NCBI GenBank assembly: GCA_965112155.1
Contig: OZ218099.1
Length of the DNA stretch: 64,000 bases
Strand: one strand, 5' to 3'
Origin: Podarcis liolepis
Taxonomy: Eukaryota
A program made the position numbers and the translations under genes. Below the pieces are notes generated by a model. That model was given only the letters and a program-made list of their open reading frames with translations, had not been told where the DNA came from and ran no database searches. Of the stretch, positions 41,460 through 62,711 are shown piece after piece (the first letter of the stretch is position 1; each line of letters starts with the position of its first letter).

Positions 41460-41978
41460 TGCATTTTTTTATCACATGCTGAGCTTCACCTGCACAAATG
41501 GCAGTCTGTACAGAAGTATGAACCATGACCTTCTTTGCATCCTACCTTGCGTCTGACAAGTGCAGCCTGCAATGCTCTGTGAGGTCTCAGTGCAAAAGAT
41601 CAGTTCCCTCAAGTGGAAGGGAGAAGTTTGACAGGTCCGGCATTGCGTGCCACCTTGCCTGCAGAAGCTCAGGCAGGCTCTAGATCAAAAGGCAGCGAGC
41701 TGGCACAGCTGTCAGGTTGAGGAAATTCAGAAGTGCATGAAGGGTATGCAAACTCCCTGCAACATAGCCACCCCTGTGTCCTCTCAGCTGCCCAGTGGCC
41801 CATTGAATGAACATGTTCTGCACCTAACTGTCCCTTTAGAATTGCCCTTTTCTGCATGCACATAGACACGCACAGGAGAGACTGCAGATTTCTCTAAAGA
41901 TCCCAGAAGCAATATTTCATTTCTGTGTGCTGTCCCTCCAAGCCATAATCTCTTACACTGAGATTATGCACAACACTA

Positions 41979-42220
41979 CAGTGGTACCTCGGGTTACATA
42001 CACTTCAGGTTACATATGCTTCAGGTTACAGACTCCGCTAACCCAGAAATAGTGCTTCAGGTTAAGAACTTTGCTTCAGGATAAGAACAGAAATCATGCT
42101 CCGGTGGCACGGCAGCAGCAGGAGGCCCCATTACCTAAAGTGGTGCTTCAGGTTAAGAACAGTTTCAGGTTAAGAACAGACCTCTGGAACGAATTAAGTA
42201 CTTAGCCCGAGGTACCATTG
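41979..42220 (-). mobile_element. Tigger-like MITE (same family)
   Basis: CAGTGGTACCTCGGGTTA ... CCGAGGTACCATTG, TA TSD. Confidence 0.9.
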
Positions 42221-44612: not shown

Positions 44613-45025
44613 TGTTATGTACTAAGCTTGGATCCTAGAACAATAGGCAAGTGGGATCCTAGAATGCAACGACTGATTGGCTTGCAGGAAAAGACCAATC
44701 AGACTCCAGGAGGAAGTTAATCAGCCTATTAGGCTGGTAGAATCGTAGAATGCAACAACTGATTGGTCTGCAGGAAAAGACCAATCAGGCTCCAGAGGAC
44801 GTTAATCAGCCTATTAGGCTGGTAGGATGGTAGACTGCAACAACTGATTGGCCTGCAGGAAAAGACCAATCAGGCTCCAGGAGGGAAGTAGAATCAGCCA
44901 ATCAGACGGGACTCATTGTGTAAATAATGTACATAAAAGCCTGAGATTTGGGGGGCAATTCAATCACTGTTTTACAAGCTGCAATAAAGAGCATGAAATC
45001 ACTACAGGACTCTGAGTATATTTCT
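44613..45025 (+). mobile_element. Solo LTR with triplicated ~85-bp CCAAT-box repeat
   Basis: Starts TGTTATGTAC; TATA-like ACATAAAA and AATAAA; GGATG TSD at 44608-44612 and 45026-45030. Confidence 0.8.
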
Positions 45026-47732: not shown

Positions 47733-48176
47733 GTCAGGAGCTCATCTTACACTCGAGTAGGACCCTGGCAGAGACACATGACCGACTGGCATGTTCTCTC
47801 CCTCCTGGTCGATCGTTCGGGAGCTTCAAAAATTTTCTTCAGCCGGAACATCACAGCAACTGATGCCAACCAACACTGGCACACTTAGGGATCCTCAGAG
47901 TCTGCGCAGTTCGCGTGACAGACCTCAGCAACTCAGCATTTTGGCTAATCTACTTTATTTGCATATAAACACAGAGAGAGCACAGCAACATGGCTCCCTC
48001 TCTCTCTAGCATCAGACAGCAAAGAGAACAAACAAAGGACAATAGTCCCACTTCACGGAACACAGTAACACAAACATCCTGTCTCCGTCACTTCCCACTT
48101 TGTGGAGTCAAAACATATACCGTCATGTGATAGACAAAAATCCCATGACTGCAATTATGGAGCAGGAATTCTAACA
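47733..48176 (-). mobile_element. Solo LTR nested in the RTE fragment
   Basis: Minus strand starts TGTTAGAATT; AATAAA near 47955; GTCA duplicated at 47733-47736 and 48177-48180; RTE reading frame rejoins across it. Confidence 0.7.
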
Positions 48177-48681
48177 GTCACATGCTTGAAGCGGTAGATG
48201 ATTTTGTTTACCTGGGCTCCACCATAGCCAGCAACCTTTCCACCAATGCTGAGCTGGACAAGCATATTGGCAAGACAGCTACAGCAATGGCTCACCTCTC
48301 CAAAAGGGTATGGGAGAATGTGATGCTAGCCAAGATGAATACCAAGACCAAGATGAAGGTTTACCAGTCCTGCATGTTGAGCACACCTCTTTATGGAAGT
48401 GAGTTGTGGGTAACTTACAATCACCACCAGCAATGCCTCAATGTCTTCCACATGCACAGCTTCAGGAATATTTTGAGCAACACATGGCATAACAGAGTCT
48501 CAGGCAAAGATGCACTCTCCCAAACCCACATTCCCAGCATGCACACACTCCTGTCTCAGCAACCCATACGCTGGCTTGATCATGCCCACAGAATGGAAGA
48601 TGGCAGGATCCCCAAGGACGTGTTCTATGGGGAGCTGGCTTCAGGCACCAGGCCCATTCGCAGACCAACTCTGCATTGCAA

Positions 48682-49035
48682 GGTAAAGGTAAAGGGACCC
48701 CTGACCATTAGGTCCAGTCGTGGCCGACTCTGGGGTTGCGGCGCTCATCTCGCTTTATTGGCCAAGGGAGCCAGCGTACAGCTTCCGGGTCATGTGGCCA
48801 GCATGACTAAGCTGCTTCTGGCGAACCAGAGCAGCGCATGGAAACGCCGTTTACCTTCCCGCCGGAGTGGTACCTATTTATCTACTTGCACTTTGACATG
48901 CTTTTGAACTGCTAGGTTGGCAGGAGCAGGGACTGAACAGCGGGAGCTTACCCCGTCGCAGGGATTCGAACCACCGACCTTCTGATCAGCAAGTCCTAGG
49001 CTCTGTGGTTTAACCCACAGCACCACCCGCATCCC
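48682..49035 (-). mobile_element. Sauria SINE (Squam1), full length, inserted in an RTE LINE
   Basis: Reverse complement of the 11808 family; TSD TCTGCATTGCAA at 48670-48681 and 49037-49048. Confidence 0.92.
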
Positions 49036-50919: not shown

Positions 50920-51162
50920 CAGTGGTACCTCGGGTTAAGAACTTAAATTCGTTCTGGAGGTCCTTTCTTAACCTGAAACTGTTCTTAACCTGAAGCACCA
51001 CTTTAGCTAATGGGGCCTCCTGCTGCCGCCATGCCACCGGAGCACGATTTCTGTTCTCATCCTGAAGCAAAGTTCTTAACCCGAGGTAATATTTCTGGGT
51101 TAGCGAAGTCTGTAACCTGAAGCATCTGTAACCTGAAGCGTATGTAACCCAAGGTACCACTG
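50920..51162 (+). mobile_element. Tigger-like MITE (same family)
   Basis: CAGTGGTACCTCGGGTTA ... AAGGTACCACTG, TA TSD. Confidence 0.9.
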
Positions 51163-51735
51163 TAAAGGTAACAGGGGTTTGAATGTGCTATAATCATGCA
51201 ACATCAGATGGCGCCAGAGAGCAGGAAATTTTAAAACACAGTTTTCCATAGAGATTTCTTTCTTGTGTTATAATTTCTCACTTGTTTATATTGGTCCCAC
51301 CCTCCCATGTCTGGAATCATCCTAGCTGTGTTTTTGTGCCTGAGACAGAGAAATTATCCTGGTAAAGATTATCCCACTAGTTATCCTGCTAAATGTCTGT
51401 GTTAGCAAAGGCCAATCTAGGGGAGTGCAGCGGGTTCAGTTGCACAGCTCCTGGGGTGCTGTAGCAGGTGCCACAACTTTGAGGTCCACCAAAAGGTGAG
51501 AGGCAGGGAGGTGCTGGATTTTGACATTGCACAGGACACTACTGAAATTTGAGACACCGAAACCTGCCACTGGTGTTCAGTTGCTATTGAAGGCAAATAT
51601 CAGGAATGGGGAACCTGAGACTCTCCAGGTATCTGTTTTTGCTTTTGCTGGACTTTAACTCCCACCTGCCACAGCCAGCACAGCCAACCATCAGGTTGCC
51701 CAACAGTGACTGGAGGGCAACAGATTCCCCATTTC

Positions 51736-54900: not shown

Positions 54901-55050
54901 TTTTGTTTCTGCTTGGCTCTGCTTTGTGTGGCCTGTTTGATTCGCATTCGAGACCACTCTTCTCCCTTGTCTCTGTAGGCCACTCTTGGGCACCTGTTGA
55001 AACCAGAAATGAAAAGGAGGCACAAAACCAATTTGAAGTCCTATTCACTG

Positions 55051-55764
55051 TGAAAGGGACTTCAGAAATACCGACCAGGAATGTAAAAATCAGGCAGCAA
55101 AGTTTCTTAAAGAAAAAGTTTTTTTTATTTGGATTTTTTGTCCGACAAAAAGCAAATAGGGTGCATTCAGGAAAATGAAGAATGCCCACCCCTCCTTGGG
55201 GGTAGCTAACTCATATACCTTCTTGCAAAGCATAGTTCAGCCCCTTGGCATCCCTTTAGCCAATGATTGACAATTTCCTATGGTCATTGATGCATATTCA
55301 TTAAAGCTCAACCAATGAATAAATTGGTGTGTCCTTTTCGGTTCCAAGTTGCCTATTCCACTAGGTGGCGCTACTGGCTTATAATCTACTTAACCTCTGT
55401 ACTACTTCCAGGAAGTACCCCTGACCACATGCTTCCTAGAAATGTGCCGAAGCGAGTCGTGTGGTTTAGCACCTGGAGCCTGGCGGTCAGCAAACATCCT
55501 GCTACTTGCCTTTGTCAGGGGTCGTTTCTCAGAAATGGCTTAACCTCAGGTGCAAGCTACCCTAACCGCATCCTTGCAAGCTAGCTGCCTCTACAGAAGG
55601 TGCAAAGTGGTAAACAGGAGAAAGAGAAATAGTCTTTAGCTTGCTAAAATGACTTTATGCTTTTAGCTTCTAGTTTGCTCTCAAAATGGTGTCAGAGGTT
55701 CTTAAATGGCTTTAGAGGTCCTTAGCCTGGCTCTCCATTGGTCATCCTGACCTTCACCCCTCCA
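55051..55764 (-). repeat. 3' LTR of the ERV
   Basis: Preceded on the minus strand by the PPT; AATAAA at 55124-55129 (minus); the ORF track gives the same 89-aa translation in both LTRs. Confidence 0.96.
55358..55373 (+). promoter_or_regulatory. CTCF core motif in the 3' LTR
   Basis: CCACTAGGTGGCGCTA fits the CCASYAGRKGGCRS consensus. Confidence 0.6.
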
Positions 55765-55777
55765 TTCCCCCCTTTCC
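55765..55777 (-). promoter_or_regulatory. Polypurine tract
   Basis: Minus strand GGAAAGGGGGGAA directly before the TG of the 3' LTR. Confidence 0.92.
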
Positions 55778-55779
55778 AT

Positions 55780-56091
55780 CACGAAAATGCTGACCGGCAC
55801 GGTTCTCCATTTTCGCTTGATGGACCTATAGGTACAATATCATAGAGAGCCAGGAAATGTACACTCCTGTGGATACACTGGCCTTCCTCTATGACCCTGT
55901 CAAGTCTTCAAATATGGTGCTGGGGAACCACGTAGGTGGTATTCAGAATCTTGACCTCGCACGCATACCCAGCACTCAGACCTGTTCAGGCTCTTGGCCA
56001 CAGCCGTGGTCATGTTCAGGAAGGTGTTCTCCCTCCACCCGGTGGCCATCTGAGAGGTGAGAACCATCAGGAGGCAGGGTATGATCCACAT
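55780..56091 (-). pseudogene. env: Env stub: signal peptide and SU N-terminus with CWVC; remainder largely deleted
   Basis: MWIIPCLLMVLTSQMATGWRENTFLNMTTAVAKSLNRSECWVC: hydrophobic leader, N-glycosylation sequons, gamma-type CxxC (55963-55974); only ~190 nt remain before the PPT. Confidence 0.82.
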
Positions 56092-56600
56092 CCTGATTCG
56101 AGGGATGTTCGGTGCCCCAGAACAAAGAACTGTACCACCAACACAGAAATACCACAAAAAGGGTACTACCACAGGCCAAAGGGATGGTGGCCCACGAAGG
56201 CCAGGTCATGTGGGCCTCTAACTCCTGGCCCTACTGAGGCGTGAACAGCGTCTACACACAAAACGTTCCCACTCTACACAGGGAAAAGTGGCCTTCTGGG
56301 ACTGATACACTGTTAGGCCTCGGGAGCTATAGGGATGACAATAGACTCTGTAAAGTTCAAAGGCTGGTCCTACTGGGTAGCGGTCACCTACGTGGTCTCT
56401 GACCAGGGTCTATGGAGGCTGAAGCCTGGGGTGGCAACCCTTATGCAGCCACAAGAATACCCTACCACATTCAAGGGTATTATGTGTGGAGTTACCAGGC
56501 CCAGTAGTTCAGGCAGTATTCTGGGATTTTTTGGGAGGCTCGAGCCACCACGACAACCACAGGTGGGGCTGCAGGATTTACTGGCACTTGTTCAGCAATT

Positions 56601-57023
56601 TCAATGCGCACCTGGTTCAGGCTCCCTCCCCTGCAATATTTGCATTAAGATAGGCTCCGTCCCATGCAACACCTGGATTAAGATTAGGACCTGGTCTACC
56701 AGATGGGGTTGGTACAGTGCTCTACCCCCTGAGTGACAGTTGGTTACCCCCCCACAACAGCAAGAGCGGTCCAGAACTCGATAGATTTCAACCGTCTCTG
56801 CAACTTCCCGTAGGAGCAGTACCCATGTGCGCTGGACAGTGGTGTGGAAGAGAAGCCACAGTGGGGTAGTGGGATGTTTCAATACGGCAACCTCATCAAA
56901 GCCCTGTTCCCAATAACCAATGAGAACGCCGTTTCTTACCACTGGCAAGACGAACCAGTCGTAGCAGAGGTCCGCAGGCCAATAGGGTCGGTATGGCTCG
57001 GTGGGGTCAGGGCAATAGGACAT
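56601..57023 (-). CDS. Putative 140-aa accessory ORF between pol and env, function unknown
   Basis: Open frame from ATG 57023 (MSYCPDPTEPYRPYWPADLCYDWFVLPVVRNG...YRVLDRSCCCGGVTNC...) within a ~1-kb pol-env interval. Confidence 0.45.
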   Translation of the reverse strand: MSYCPDPTEPYRPYWPADLCYDWFVLPVVRNGVLIGYWEQGFDEVAVLKHPTTPLWLLFHTTVQRTWVLLLREVAETVEIYRVLDRSCCCGGVTNCHSGGRALYQPHLVDQVLILIQVLHGTEPILMQILQGREPEPGAH

Positions 57024-57088
57024 AGAGCAAATCAATACAGAACATAATAGAGAAAAGGGGAAAGTCCTTGTGAAAGTCCTTGTGATGA

Positions 57089-58345
57089 TCAGTCGCAGGA
57101 TCTCGTTGCCCGTGGCCCCAACGCACTCCCGGTGGCGTCGGACGCAGGGGTGATGATCAGACGCGTGTGATGCACCCAGGGAATCACGTCGGCTACTCTC
57201 ACCGCAGTTGGGATGGAGAGGAGGACGGTATACGGGCCTCGCCACTTAGGGATGAGGGGGTTGCGCTTCCACGCTGTCACCCGGCTGGAACTGGTGGACC
57301 GGCTCAGCGAGACTGCACGGTGTAGGCTCGAGGTAGTACCTGGAAAGGGAAGCAAACACACACGGGGACAGGAATTGCACTTGTTCCTGAGTGATGTGAT
57401 CTCCCACCCGCCCCAAACTGGCGGGGATGTCTCGGACGAAAGGGGTGGCCTGCCATACAAAAGTTCAAAGGGTGATAGTCTCAGTCTCTTGGTTGGAGCG
57501 CTCCGAATCCGAAACAAGGCAATGGGCAGGACATCTATCCAGTGTAGTCCCGACTCCTGGGTCAGCTTGGCCAAGTGGGTCTTCAAGGTGCGATTCATAC
57601 ACTCAGGTTTTCCCGAACTCTGGGGTCTGTAGGCTGCGTGTAGCCTTCAGTTTATCTGCACCGCCTTGCACACTTCTTGCACAACTTTATCAATGAAGGC
57701 AGGGCCACTGTCACTGCCAATACTTCTGGGGAGGCCACTGTCCAACCCGTCAGGGTGCAGACAAACACAAGCAGGTATTTGATGCCCCTAACTGGAGGTA
57801 GTTCAGTGAAGTCCACAATCAGGCTTTCCATAGGGGTGAAGCCCACGTGTTGTACGCCCGGTGGAGGGAGGTGGCCTTGTCTGGGGGTGTTCTTGGCGCA
57901 CAGGACACACTTTTGTGAGATAGCAGCAATTAGTTGGGATAGGTTGGGGATGTAGAGTATTCTCCCAAGGTGTGCTTTAGCAGCTGGGCTTCCTATGTGA
58001 GTAGACTCGTGGTAGTTCTTTACAATCACGCTGGCTAGATGCTGGGGCACAAAAACACGGTTGTCTGGTAGATGGAACCATCCCTCCTGGAGTGTTGCAC
58101 CTTCCTGGCGTGCCCACTGTTGCTCCTCCGGTGTGTAGTGTGGTTCCACATCGTCTGGAGTGAGTTGTGGGATGAGGGCTGCGTTGAGTGCTGGTGGAGG
58201 TTTCAAAGCTGCTTCACGAGCTGCGTTGTCTGCCTTCCGGTTGCCCCTAGTGACCATGTCCCGGCCTCTCCGATGGCCTTTGCAGTGCATCACGGCAATC
58301 TCTTCGGGACCCCATACTGCTTCCAGTAACGTCTCAACTTCTGGA
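57089..58345 (-). pseudogene. pol: Pol remnant: RNase H C-terminus and integrase (deletion, frameshift, stop)
   Basis: AVMHCKGH...GNRKADNAAREAA; HESTH...CVLC zinc finger; IVDFTE, YLLVFVCTLTGW, SDSGPAF, YRPQSSG..E.MNRTLK, SPFELLYGRPP, PKWRGPYTVLL..PTAVRV...PWVHHTRL. Confidence 0.95.
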
Positions 58346-58905
58346 CATTAGCCTTGCATCCAGTTGCCAATTGCAGGGCAATGCCTTTTGCTGTTGGACT
58401 TCGCCTCAGAGCACAAACAACTCTTGGAGACTTTGGCTTTCTTAGACCTCTTGGAACGGCTTGCCTGGCTTGCACCCCCACTTCTGGGTGCTCTGCTGCC
58501 TGAGGAACAACTTGTAACTGCCTTCCTCTTCAGCCCACAGTCCATCACACAGATTTATTGAAGCGTAGAAACAGCTTCCCAAAACAGCCTCAGCCCCCTC
58601 TGGGCTTGGTACTTTTTCTGGGCATCCTCTAGCCCCCTCTGGGCTTTCTGGGCGTCCCACAGCCCCTTCTGGGCTTCCAGCCCCCTCTGGTCTGGCTGCC
58701 ACTGTGGCCTGACATGCTGTCTTCAGTGGCTGCCACGCTACCCAGGGCTTCCTCCCTTGGAGTATTGGCAACAGCCAAGAATCAAGGCTGGTCCTTAAAA
58801 TGGCTAGGACCCTTTGGTCTCTCTAGACCATCAGGCACGTCTGCTTCACAAGCTTCCACTGCGCCTGCAGACTTCTCAATGGGTTGGGCAAAGCCTGTTT
58901 CAGTC
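58345..58905 (-). other. Second non-viral insert replacing most of RNase H
   Basis: No Pol motifs between MEYKG(YTD) and EVETLLEAVWGPEEIAVMHCKGH; four copies of AGCCCC(C/T)TCTGG (58592-58692); low-complexity PEGA-repeat and K/R/S-rich translations. Confidence 0.65.
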
Positions 58906-58909
58906 TGTG

Positions 58910-59191
58910 TACCCCTTATATTCCATAAGGGTGAGAACCGAATGGGGCACATTCACATGCATCTCCTGGCCAAACATGAACTTGTCTGCTTCTTCCACTA
59001 GTGTGGCGGTGGCAGTGACAGGCCACAGACAGGGTGGCCAGCCTTTCACTGTGGAATCTAATTGTTTGATAGTCTCAAAGGCTTCTTGTTGGGCCGGTCC
59101 CCACTCAAAGGGGTCTCTTTCCCTTCCTCTGGTACTCTCATTTAGAGGTTTTGCTAAAATACTGAGGCCCGGGATCAGGATTCTGCAAAGG
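58910..59191 (-). pseudogene. pol: Pol remnant: RT C-terminus / connection domain with an internal deletion
   Basis: CRILIPGLSILAKPLNE...FEWGPAQQEAFETIK | QLDSTVKGWPPCL...LVEEADKFMFGQ...VPHSV, typical of gamma-type RT thumb/connection. Confidence 0.9.
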
Positions 59192-60260
59192 CTGCTGCTC
59201 CACAACTTTAAGCTTGTCTTTTAGGGATATCACAATCTCTGCCTTTTATTGCAGTGACCTTTTGACAATTTATAGATGGTCAGTATGTTCAGCAAGTTGT
59301 CTGGATAAATTAGCTAAATCTTCATCCCTTCTTTTGCATTTTGTAAAGTGAGCTGGTTGTGTGAATCTTTCACTGATTTCAGCTCGTTCACAAAACTTTG
59401 TTCTCTGTTTTTCTTTTAATTTTAGTAACTTGTTCAATTTCTCCTTTGCAGAGATATGTTCATCGACCTGGGATTTAAGATGGTCTGTTCCTCCTTACAT
59501 TCTATTTCTGTTTCTTGCAATTTTTTAGTTGATATACTTATTTGTTCTTTAAGCAATTTAATTTGTGAGTCACACTCCATGAGTTTGTTGTTGTAAGTAA
59601 CATCACAAGTATTGATTGCAGAATGAAGATCTTTAACTGTTTGGCTAGTCTCTTTGATTTGCCTAACAAATTCTTCATTCTCTTTTGTTTTACTAGCGTT
59701 TTCAATTTTTTTTTTCCTCAGCCAGTTCTGATTTTATTGCATTTAACTGCTCAGAAAGTTCTGAAAGCTTTCTGCCTCCACTGTTCACACCTTTGGTTTG
59801 TACATCTTTCAGCAACTGGACTTCCCTTTCAGCCTTAGACAACACTATTTCCCTGTCTTGCATTTCATCCTCTTTGCACTTGATCTGACATTTCAGAATA
59901 TTAATCTGCTCAGAATACACATTTGTATTTGAAATAATAGCAGAAATTTCTTTGTCTTTCTCAGCTAAAACCTCTCTGAGGTTGTCAAATTCTCTTCCAT
60001 GCCTCTGGAGGTCTTGAATTAGTTGAGACCTCTCTTCTAAATGACTTGTGTTTAATCTATTAAGTCCTTCATTTGTCTGTTCAAGATCCTGTTACATTAA
60101 TTCTATAATAGCATCCTATTTCATGGTCTTTTCTCAAAAGTTTATTTATTTTTTCCTCTGTTAATGCAGTAATAACTGCTTACTGTTCTGTACACTCTTC
60201 TCCATAAACACTGCACTTCTTCTGGACATCTTCCCTCTCCAAAACCTGACATGAGGGAGT
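59192..60260 (-). pseudogene. Non-viral, decayed coiled-coil coding segment inside the ERV (golgin/GOLGB1-like, probably captured host sequence)
   Basis: E/K/Q/L-rich heptad-like translation across stops and frameshifts: QDLEQTNEGLNRLNTSHLEERSQLIQDLQRHGREFDNLREVLAEKDKEISAIISNTNVYSEQINILKCQIKCKEDEMQ...KENEEFVRQIKE...YNNKLMECDSQIKLLKEQIS...DEDLANLSRQLAEH...SLKDKLKVVEQQ; no retroviral motif; visibly AT-richer than the flanking viral DNA. The GOLGB1 identity is from recall only. Confidence 0.75.
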
Positions 60261-60469
60261 GACTTTGCAATGTTCAGTCCTGCATTTCTTCAACCAGGGG
60301 GGGGGGTCTCTATTACCACATTCAGCCAGTAGTCTATATAGGGAATCTGGTCAGAATGTCCCCCCTGGTCTATGCCATAGTCTCCACTGAATCCTTTCTT
60401 GAAGTTGTTTAACATGCATTGAAGGGGGATTACTGGACCTTTCAAGCCTTTCGAGCCTCCCCCTCCCAT
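60260..60469 (-). pseudogene. gag: Gag matrix remnant (internally deleted, frameshift in a C10 run)
   Basis: MGGGGSK (myristoylation-type start) ...PLQCMLNNFKKGFSGDYG ... GHSDQIPYIDYW ... PPP/WLKKC; gammaretroviral MA motifs (GHPDQVPYIxxW, PPPW). Confidence 0.88.
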
Positions 60470-61019
60470 TTTCAGTATGACCCTGTACAGCGTCCCCACA
60501 CCAAACACTCACACATTCATTTCGCAAGGAATACTTATTACTACGACCCCAGGGGAATGCCCTGGGTTAACACACATACATGCACAAAATGCCTCTCTCG
60601 CCAGACGTTGTACCATACACTAACCACCCTGTGCCCCCCTTTCTCTCCTTCCTAATACCAAAACGTGGGTGGTTGTCAGGGGTCAACCCTTCTCCTTAAT
60701 GCCACTATCCACGCTGGAGATGTGATCAGGATCTCCCTTCTCCTTAATTAAAAGGAGGATTTACTATGTCCTCAGGGCTTGTTGCCATGTACTCACCCCA
60801 GCCGGCTGTTCTCTGCCCTGTCCTCCCAACCTCGGGTCTTCAAATCCGTTGTCCTCTGTCCCAGGATACAGCAAGAGGGTCAAGTTGCCTTCTGTCCCCC
60901 TCCGAAGAAAAGGTTCGGTGTGCACCTGGAAGCCAGGAAGTCCGTTGGCCCTCCGCTGTCACTGCCCAGAGGGCAAGGGAGCTGCCTCCTGGTCTCTGAG
61001 GACACTTAAAGTCCTTCTG

Positions 61020-61041
61020 ATCCGAGTCACTTTTGGCACCA
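61020..61041 (-). promoter_or_regulatory. Primer-binding site, tRNA-His type with an AAAA insertion
   Basis: Minus strand TGGTGCC-AAAA-GTGACTCGGAT, 4 nt after the 5' LTR; the canonical His PBS is TGGTGCCGTGACTCGGAT. Confidence 0.85.
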
Positions 61042-61045
61042 GAAA

Positions 61046-61759
61046 TGAAAGGGACTTCAGAAATACCGACCAGGAATGTAAAAATCAGGCAGCAAAGTTT
61101 CTTAAAGAAAAAGTTTTTTTTATTTGGATTTTTTGTCCGACAAAAAGCAAATAGGGTGCATTCAGGAAAATGAAGAATGCCCACCCCTCCTTGGGGGTAG
61201 CTAACTCATATACCTTCTTGCAAAGCATAGTTCAGCCCCTTGGCATCCCTTTAGCCAATGATTGACAATTTCCTATGGTCATTGATGCATATTCATTAAA
61301 GCTCAACCAATGAATAAATTGGTGTGTCCTTTTCGGTTCCAAGTTGCCTATTCCACTAGGTGGCGCTACTGGCTTATAATCTACTTAACCTCTGTACTAC
61401 TTCCAGGAAGTACCCCTGACCACATGCTTCCTAGAAATGTGCCGAAGCGAGTCGTGTGGTTTAGCACCTGGAGCCTGGCGGTCAGCAAACATCCTGCTAC
61501 TTGCCTTTGTCAGGGGTCGTTTCTCAGAAATGGCTTAACCTCAGGTGCAAGCTACCCTAACCGCATCCTTGCAAGCTAGCTGCCTCTACAGAAGGTGCAA
61601 AGTGGTAAACAGGAGAAAGAGAAATAGTCTTTAGCTTGCTAAAATGACTTTATGCTTTTAGCTTCTAGTTTGCTCTCAAAATGGTGTCAGAGGTTCTTAA
61701 ATGGCTTTAGAGGTCCTTAGCCTGGCTCTCCATTGGTCATCCTGACCTTCACCCCTCCA
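61046..61759 (-). repeat. 5' LTR of the ERV
   Basis: Minus strand starts TGGAGGGG and ends ...CCCTTTCA, followed by the PBS; matches 55051-55764 at an offset of 5995. Confidence 0.96.
61353..61368 (+). promoter_or_regulatory. CTCF core motif in the 5' LTR
   Basis: Identical CCACTAGGTGGCGCTA. Confidence 0.6.
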
Positions 61760-62711
61760 ACTGCATTGTTTGGCTGAGGCCTGGGTGAAATGATCATGCC
61801 CCGTAGGCAAAGGGAAAGATTCACTGCATTTATACCCCTCCAAAGGAGCCATCTAAGCATGGTGTACATTGTGAAATATGTGGTGTTTATACTGAACTGG
61901 GCTTAATGGTGGCTAATGAAGGCTGTTAGCTTTCAGTTTCATAGACACAAGATGGAACCTACATCCTAGGTTTGTTAGTTATCCCCTTGGTTCCCAAGCA
62001 GGGGGTGGAGGGGGATCCTCATTCCTGGGTCTGGAAAGCTGTCATCCAAAAGCCTGGTCTACCTAATAGGGTTGTTGTTGAACTAAAGTTGCTCATAGGG
62101 AAGATGGAATACTGATATCTTAAATAAATGGCAGTTCCTTTTGGGGAAAGATGAATAAATGCAACCGCAGGCCCAGTATCTGATTATAATTGCCATGTTT
62201 ACTTCCCTTGCATCCCACTAAATCTCCTGCTGGAGATTCTATGTCAGACAATATGGAGGTGATGTTATGGCATCAGAAAGTATGAAAAGGCTTCAGAAGA
62301 CTCTTTGGCTTCTTTCCCTTGGACTGCTTTGAAATAACTAAAAGCTTCTGGAACAAAAGTGCAATTTGGGGGAGATTATGGGCATTTGCCTGTCCAAGCC
62401 TTCATTAACAAACCTTATTACAGGCATTTCTCTCCATGTCGGCTTTCATCTTCCACACGCTAATTTTTTTTTCCCCTCTTTCACATGGAGAACAATCTTC
62501 TCTGCTGAAAATGTGATGTTAGATTTGGAAGAATGGGAAGTGCTAGCCGGTATTGGCTGGTATATCAAGCCAACGGAGACCGGTATTGGGATCTAGGAAT
62601 GCATTAAAGACTTCACCACTGGCTCCACTCTTCAAGAGATCATAGCCCAGCTTCTTGATGGGTTTTTACTTTAAGTCAACCAATCAAAAAGCTGTTTCAC
62701 CTTCCCTACTT

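Follow-up and report, generated by a model that had tools for sequence, protein, structure and literature searches.

Which sequence has taken the place of capsid (CA), nucleocapsid (NC), protease (PR) and the reverse transcriptase (RT) core in an endogenous retrovirus (ERV) of the lizard Podarcis liolepis, how did it get there, and does it do anything for its carrier? The locus lies in the 64,000-nt stretch of DNA analysed here (the window). A preliminary description of the window had noticed an A-rich, coiled-coil-encoding segment between a gag matrix remnant and the RT thumb, had attributed it to a host golgin gene resembling GOLGB1, and had compared the arrangement with the gag-abl and gag-myc fusions of transducing retroviruses.

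A defective gamma-like provirus carries the segment

The minus strand of the window from 55051 to 61759 is a 6,709-bp defective provirus; its features are given here in viral order, with L095, a related provirus with open frames, as the reference for the coding remnants.

61760..61763 (no strand), partner 55047-55050: 4-bp target-site duplication (TSD) flanking the provirus
61046..61759, minus: 5' LTR, 714 bp, 100% identity with the 3' LTR
61020..61041, minus: primer-binding site (PBS) of tRNA-His type with a 4-A insertion; matches host tRNA-His genes
60248..60469, minus: gag remnant, matrix N-terminus with internal deletions; 78-85% identity with L095 gag
60231..60247, minus: 17 nt resembling the end of an upstream GOLGB1 exon (ends C1:57885610); 15/17 match, in 27/27 copies
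60128..60234, minus: GOLGB1 105-nt exon (host C1:57886159-57886263); 93% identity over 89 nt
59193..60127, minus: GOLGB1 giant exon, first 929 nt (host C1:57886993-57887921); 93.6% identity
59193..59201, minus: 9-nt microhomology, identical in host exon and viral RT, at the 3' junction (by sequence comparison)
57082..59201, minus: pol remnant (RT thumb, partial RNase H, integrase) with several deletions; identified by Pfam, 84-89% to L095 pol
55800..56090, minus: env remnant, limits approximate, ~1 kb gone; pieces 81-88% identical to L095 env
55051..55764, minus: 3' LTR, 714 bp, identical to the 5' LTR

By its domains and frame layout, the element is a class I gamma-like ERV: L095 contains Gag_MA, Gag_p30, MLVIN_C and TLV_coat, and has gag and pol in the same frame with a stop between them; the L095 gag and env to which the window remnants align are those bearing Gag_MA and TLV_coat, respectively; and the pol remnant of the window itself matches Integrase_H2C2, MLVIN_C and, weakly, RNase_H. 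The gag frame opened by ATG in the window ends after 59 codons. The RT motif, first read as FCRI, is LCRI in the window copy, whereas other copies have the bases for FCRI.

The PBS is of the His type with 3-4 extra A in 21 of the 26 copies read (L091 was not parsed) and is uninterrupted in 5 of 27 (L072, L078, L080, L082 and L083); the relatives L093-L098 also have short PBS inserts, at roughly the same spot. The A-insert may help the element evade silencing directed at the PBS, and copying of the tRNA may restore the uninterrupted form. Elsewhere the window holds, on the plus strand at 48149-48907, a 252-codon frame that resembles by eye the end of a LINE reverse transcriptase; three tandem units of 85 bp at 44624-44879; and a 219-bp dispersed repeat at 41977-42195 and 50946-51164 that also occurs in the introns and flanks of GOLGB1. 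The tandem and the dispersed repeat are both ordinary as far as seen.

Sequence comparison identifies the insert as spliced GOLGB1 mRNA

The insert runs on the minus strand from 60247 to 59193, is A-rich (42% A, 35% GC), and is bounded by the gag remnant on one side and the RT thumb region on the other. The segment first described, 59192-60260, is real in substance, but its first 13 bases (60260-60248) belong to gag; the provirus around it has identical 714-bp LTRs, and the E/K/Q/L-rich peptides quoted from it are present, spread over three frames. A protein search with a 129-aa open piece gave 7 matches from 645 candidates at 46-66% identity, six of them named golgin B1 or B1-like and the remaining one a snake hypothetical protein; the best near-full-length match is a snake protein (65%), followed by birds (59-61%), as would fit a squamate. 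Neither retroviral Gag nor L1 ORF1p, the contrary origins named in the preliminary description, nor any other retroviral or L1 protein is among these 7. Pfam matches to the open pieces are coiled coil only, all sub-threshold.

The same 129-aa piece is 85% identical to the protein encoded at a locus of the lizard's own genome. A DNA search of that genome (30 of 30 candidates scored) returned 27 proviruses, one of them matched twice, one relic and one non-viral locus; the last, at C1:57.886 Mb, is the single locus without viral flanks. The gene there has multiple exons, is collinear with the GOLGB1 of birds and snakes, and is about 94-95% identical to the insert; its giant exon sits in a 2,687-codon open frame. 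The golgin attribution is borne out, as is the expectation of one intact cellular locus accompanied by ERV copies with shared junctions.

On this sequence evidence, the insert is derived from spliced host GOLGB1 (giantin) mRNA. The 729-nt GT-AG intron between the 105-nt exon and the giant exon is precisely absent, and none of the 26 copies that cover the joint has an indel there, in keeping with the proposal of a transduced exon or mRNA piece. GOLGB1 intron sequence was found inside none of the proviruses, its matches being confined to the flanks outside; since the match is to exons only, the cargo was mRNA. For the 17-nt piece, the C1 site is the best in the 39-kb host locus, and six related proviruses reach 13/17 at best; 12 nt are absent between short repeats where the piece meets the next exon. 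From the match to the upstream exon end in all 27 copies we infer a second splice joint, so that the check for exon-exon junctions yields one exact joint and one probable one.

All copies share only 4 silent differences from the host in ~153 silent sites; this indicates little change on the host side, and hence that the donor is the C1 gene itself or an orthologue very close to it. Transitions in CpG context make up 6 of the 31 shared differences, although the host piece has just 11 CpGs. The length of the homopolymer A tracts near 59710 and 59330 in the insert differs between copies by as much as 19 nt, a variation typical of polymerase slippage.

The copies form a young, recombining family

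At least 27 dispersed proviruses on many contigs have the GOLGB1 capture with the same junctions; this number is a lower bound, and comparisons took in the window copy and 26 others. LTR pairs are identical in 18 of the 27 and 99.7-99.9% identical in 8, and 26 pooled pairs (L091 left out) show 9 differences in 18,899 bp, which corresponds to a mean insertion age of ~0.1-0.25 million years (T = d/2r) at an assumed, order-of-magnitude rate of 1-3e-9 per site per year. Matching 4-bp TSDs flank 20 copies. The other seven (L074, L075, L078, L080, L083, L089 and L092) lack a clean 4-bp TSD in the scripted analysis, and several have a few additional virus-like bases at an LTR end; these ends may result from imperfect processing by a heterologous integrase. 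The LTR pair of L091 (C2:114.77 Mb) is 92% identical, yet its TSD is intact and one LTR is ~100% identical to the window LTR across 498 bp; the mismatch is likely due to gene conversion or recombination, not age. Three copies lack ~380 nt of the GOLGB1 insert, and two unpaired LTR matches are solo LTRs with TSDs.

Whereas LTRs within a pair are near-identical, those of different copies differ by 6.6% and internal regions by a median of 3.4%, so that the diversity is older than integration. Four-gamete incompatibility among 274 informative sites increases from 0.20 at <50 bp to ~0.7 at >500 bp, and near pairs were equally compatible in 0 of 1000 permutations. This pattern is consistent with joint packaging of RNAs from different loci followed by recombination, to which gene conversion could have added.

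The relic, L035:5176-7093 (C4:88426176-88428093), is scrambled: together with 244 bp of GOLGB1 it contains 30 bp of LTR start, an inverted pol piece less deleted than in the 27 copies, a canonical PBS, leader, and a gag piece from beyond the 27-copy gag/insert junction. Its GOLGB1 piece is 96.7% identical to the host and has 5 of the 17 family-wide differences, which marks it as an early offshoot of the same capture.

Related proviruses include candidate helpers

L093-L098 are related gamma-like proviruses without GOLGB1. Open frames are present in L094-L096 (gag 560-615 codons, pol 1,206, env 466-482), and those of L095 encode Gag_MA, Gag_p30, protease, RT, RNase H, an MLV-type integrase and TLV_coat; L094 is 99.9% identical to L095. 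The LTRs of L095 are identical over the 660 bp compared, which makes it contemporary with the GOLGB1 copies. L093 is without integrase sequence, and L097 and L098 are deleted and have identical LTRs. The open-frame relatives share 84-89% of pol and 74% of the LTR with the GOLGB1 copies, and are therefore sisters, not the direct parent. With 40 of 50 candidates scored, all 27 gag matches at ≥85% identity carry the insert, and no GOLGB1-free parent with the gag of the family was found at that threshold.

To judge from these sequences, the chimera was probably mobilised in trans by the young open-frame relatives; we infer both the complementation in trans and the identity of the helper. A second ERV family, with RT 72-73% identical to L095 and at least 36 near-equal-score matches on many contigs (40 of 251 candidates scored), is probably a larger, recent expansion and another possible helper.

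The chimera occurs in sequencing runs of other organisms

In 14 runs bearing nine organism labels, 35-58% of the sampled words of the stretch were present. Contigs were examined from 4 of at least 24 runs: those of organisms H and I span the 3' junction and those of organism F the 5' junction, reaching 31 nt or more to either side, and the H contig, which covers 10 family-wide sites, has no difference there among those listed. A degraded chimera is common to at least three organism labels, by descent or spread, and one of these may be that of the source species. No RNA run was among those listed for the stretch, which weighs neither way. One RNA run of organism I (~12% read) gave 38 reads, all within the GOLGB1 part and none 99% identical; as these have host-type letters at the family-diagnostic sites and none lies in the viral flanks, they come from host GOLGB1 mRNA. 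ERV-derived RNA was absent from this one run, which has little bearing on the germline.

Template switching probably accounts for the capture

Compared to L095, the insert stands in for 2,681 nt that begin behind matrix and end inside the RT region, and CA, NC, PR and the RT core are lost with that stretch, as had been proposed. Two switch points picked at random would share as much as the 9 nt of the 3' junction with a probability of 4.5e-5. The 5' junction, for which there is no direct parent to compare with, showed no homology. Both ends of the insert fall within exons, and the insert itself has neither poly-A nor TSD, either of which had been named as a sign of a later, separate insertion; viral sequence is replaced, not interrupted.

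We consider it highly probable that a gamma-like ERV captured ~1.05 kb of spliced GOLGB1 mRNA once and then amplified as a recombining, non-autonomous family in which the insert is a non-coding passenger. In the proposed order of template switches, minus-strand synthesis would exit the viral RNA in RT at the 9-nt match and switch onto co-packaged GOLGB1 mRNA, copying would span two exon joints, and the return to viral RNA in gag would delete ~2.7 kb (CA, NC, PR and the RT core). Because LTRs, PBS and leader would be retained, the chimera could be packaged and copied by proteins that a related intact ERV supplies. The frame of the GOLGB1 piece was lost early; the chimera would then have been mobilised repeatedly in trans from tRNA-His-primed RNA, most present insertions being very recent.

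As the 5' junction shows no homology, a DNA-level deletion after read-through remains an alternative first step. In classical oncoretroviral transduction, a provirus would have lain within GOLGB1, a DNA deletion would have fused gag to a GOLGB1 exon, spliced read-through RNA would have been packaged, and a single switch at the 9-nt match would have given rise to the 3' junction; what resulted, and its subsequent history, would not differ from the case of template switching at both ends. The transduction model predicts homology at the 3' junction only, the very asymmetry observed here, and the accessible text of a crocodilian ERV study describes read-through capture of host genes (PMC4299795). 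We regard this route as possible but rather unlikely: no proviral or LTR sequence was found in C1:57866001-57905000 (39 kb), although a somatic or lost insertion leaves none; and junctions without microsimilarity also occur among Drosophila double-switch retrocopies (4/29 in the portion available of PMC5131818). A non-viral origin has next to no probability in any of its forms: an L1-made processed pseudogene in one provirus is at odds with the replacement of viral sequence, with ends inside exons and with an insert free of poly-A and TSD; segmental duplication, with the own flanks and own LTR pair of each provirus and with the identity of just 1 of 351 between-copy LTR pairs; and assembly error, with the contigs from independent runs that bridge the junctions.

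The insert shows no sign of selection as a protein

Read in the host GOLGB1 frame, the window copy is interrupted by 6 stops and thrown out of frame by several indels, much as the preliminary description had noted. All 26 covering copies have a stop at GOLGB1 codon 47, 24 of the 26 have another at codon 19, and each of three single-base indels is common to ~19-21 of 24 covering copies. None of the 27 copies has an intact gag, pol or env; cis elements are retained.

The dN/dS comparison with the host (786 usable sites, indel-prone sites masked) counted 29 silent changes (27.9 expected) and 83 replacement/stop changes (84.1 expected), giving omega ~0.95 (p 0.83). Variants in ≥90% of copies comprise 4 silent and 27 replacement/stop changes (omega 2.5, p 0.10) and singletons 7 and 27 (omega 1.1); polymorphic variants, with 18 silent (12.0 expected) and 29 replacement/stop (omega 0.56, p 0.064), have a mild synonymous excess that leans opposite to the overall neutral pattern. 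The G-to-A changes, which are few, have no clear APOBEC-type context. Loss of the GOLGB1 frame preceded the radiation of the copies, and no purifying selection on it is seen; the insert seems to be a non-coding passenger in present copies, and the analogy with a working gag-abl or gag-myc fusion fails on both omega and the codon-47 stop.

Production of, and selection for, a coiled-coil fusion of Gag with GOLGB1, on the model of gag-onc viruses, is very unlikely even early in the history of the family. Of the 27 copies, 24 have the gag frame abutting the junction in phase with GOLGB1, and the early-offshoot relic L035 is stop-free across its 244 bp, as such a fusion would have it; however, the two frames are out of register in L071, L073 and L081, which retain 143 nt of additional gag; starting at the gag ATG, 25 of 27 copies terminate before the GOLGB1 frame and just 2 reach it, the longest frame being 150 codons (stop-free stretches downstream extend to at most 391 codons); and the differences common to all copies are 27 replacement/stop versus 4 silent. 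For present copies, the protein-fusion reading is largely refuted. Neutrality alone does not require that some insert be retained, as it is by every one of the 27 close family members, and selection might have acted on the nucleic acid: a CpG-poor, host-like insert could be favoured through less silencing or RNA sensing, or through a length suited to packaging, so that the chimera outcompetes its parent. The insert has 3 CpGs in 1,059 nt versus 97 in the 2,681 nt replaced (L095); 27 copies are chimeric versus 4 close copies that keep the deleted RT stretch; and defective ERVs are able to dominate new insertions in cattle, according to the accessible text of PMC10924933. We nevertheless hold this to be improbable, since the CpGs would go with a plain deletion as well, GOLGB1-free deleted relatives with identical LTRs exist (L097 and L098), and some young copies have lost large portions of the insert. 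There is similarly a small chance that the insert camouflages the element as self sequence from germline silencing, and/or that small RNAs against the copies cross-react with the 95%-identical GOLGB1 mRNA; if true, such cross-reaction would be a host-virus conflict over silencing a housekeeping gene.

Discussion

Abelson MLV and MC29 are acutely transforming, helper-dependent viruses with intronless cellular sequence after a truncated gag and short 3' homology. The GOLGB1 element is like them in the intronless cellular sequence behind a truncated gag, in its probable helper dependence and in the short 3' homology, and unlike them in its cargo, a fragment of a Golgi tether, and in its germline spread; it has neither an intact transduced ORF or fusion frame nor selection on the cargo protein.

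Closer in kind are LTR-mediated retrocopies, of which Tan et al. 2016 (PMC5131818), in the text accessible, cite HERV-K/FAM8A1 and maize Bs1 among others. Like these, the GOLGB1 element has part of a spliced, intronless host mRNA in place of internal ORFs, both LTRs, microsimilarity at a switch point (here the 3' junction) and secondary rounds of retroposition; secondary copies are described there for two fly retrocopies, compared to 27 young, recombining vertebrate copies here. Chong et al. 2014 (PMC4299795, accessible portion) described CrocERV29 (KIT-ligand, KITLG; 9 copies) and CrocERV31 (nectin3; 6 copies), which are likewise germline ERVs of reptiles whose numbers grew after they had picked up a host mRNA. 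Those captures are whole open host ORFs with reported purifying selection, placed between pol and env or replacing env, whereas the GOLGB1 element holds an internal fragment that replaces gag-pol and is dead, neutral and very young.

The bovine D-type of ERVK[2-1-LTR], along with recKoRV and ETn as presented in the accessible part of PMC10924933, is similar in that a central swap leaves LTRs and flanks in a non-autonomous element; the D-type also shows four-gamete evidence of co-packaging and recombination, and its defective form outnumbers the competent one. The swapped segment there is an old retroelement piece and not host protein-coding mRNA as here, and trans-mobilisation in cattle rests on population data, while ours is deduced from sequence. 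Invading ERVs (ERVi) are defined in the portion available of PMC10435555 by identical LTRs, intact genes and insertional polymorphism; in the GOLGB1 family, LTRs are identical in 18 of 27 copies and the genes are not intact. With its RT core gone, the element is probably missed by screens, such as that one, that need an RT match or intact genes.

The supposition that no golgin-bearing reptile ERV had been described holds for GOLGB1: no report of such an ERV or family was found in the literature searched, although a prior listing is possible in supplements, repeat libraries and most subscription papers, which lay outside it. It does not extend to capture as such, other host-mRNA captures being known in reptile ERVs (PMC4299795, as accessible). 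The mechanism would thus be one already known from LTR-mediated retroposition and the crocodilian captures, and what stands out is the youth of the family, its copy number and the unbroken series that leads from the donor gene to the descendants.

In conclusion, the GOLGB1 element is a clean and young example of a cellular mRNA taken up by a retrovirus in a vertebrate germline: one and the same genome contains the gene that donated the sequence, the two junctions, an early offshoot, candidate helpers and 27 descendants that recombine. It shows that a transduced host sequence can amplify widely without protein function, and provides a useful neutral baseline for the crocodilian captures with reported selection; it also lends itself to testing, in nature, whether a parasite exposed to germline silencing gains or loses by carrying host-like sequence.
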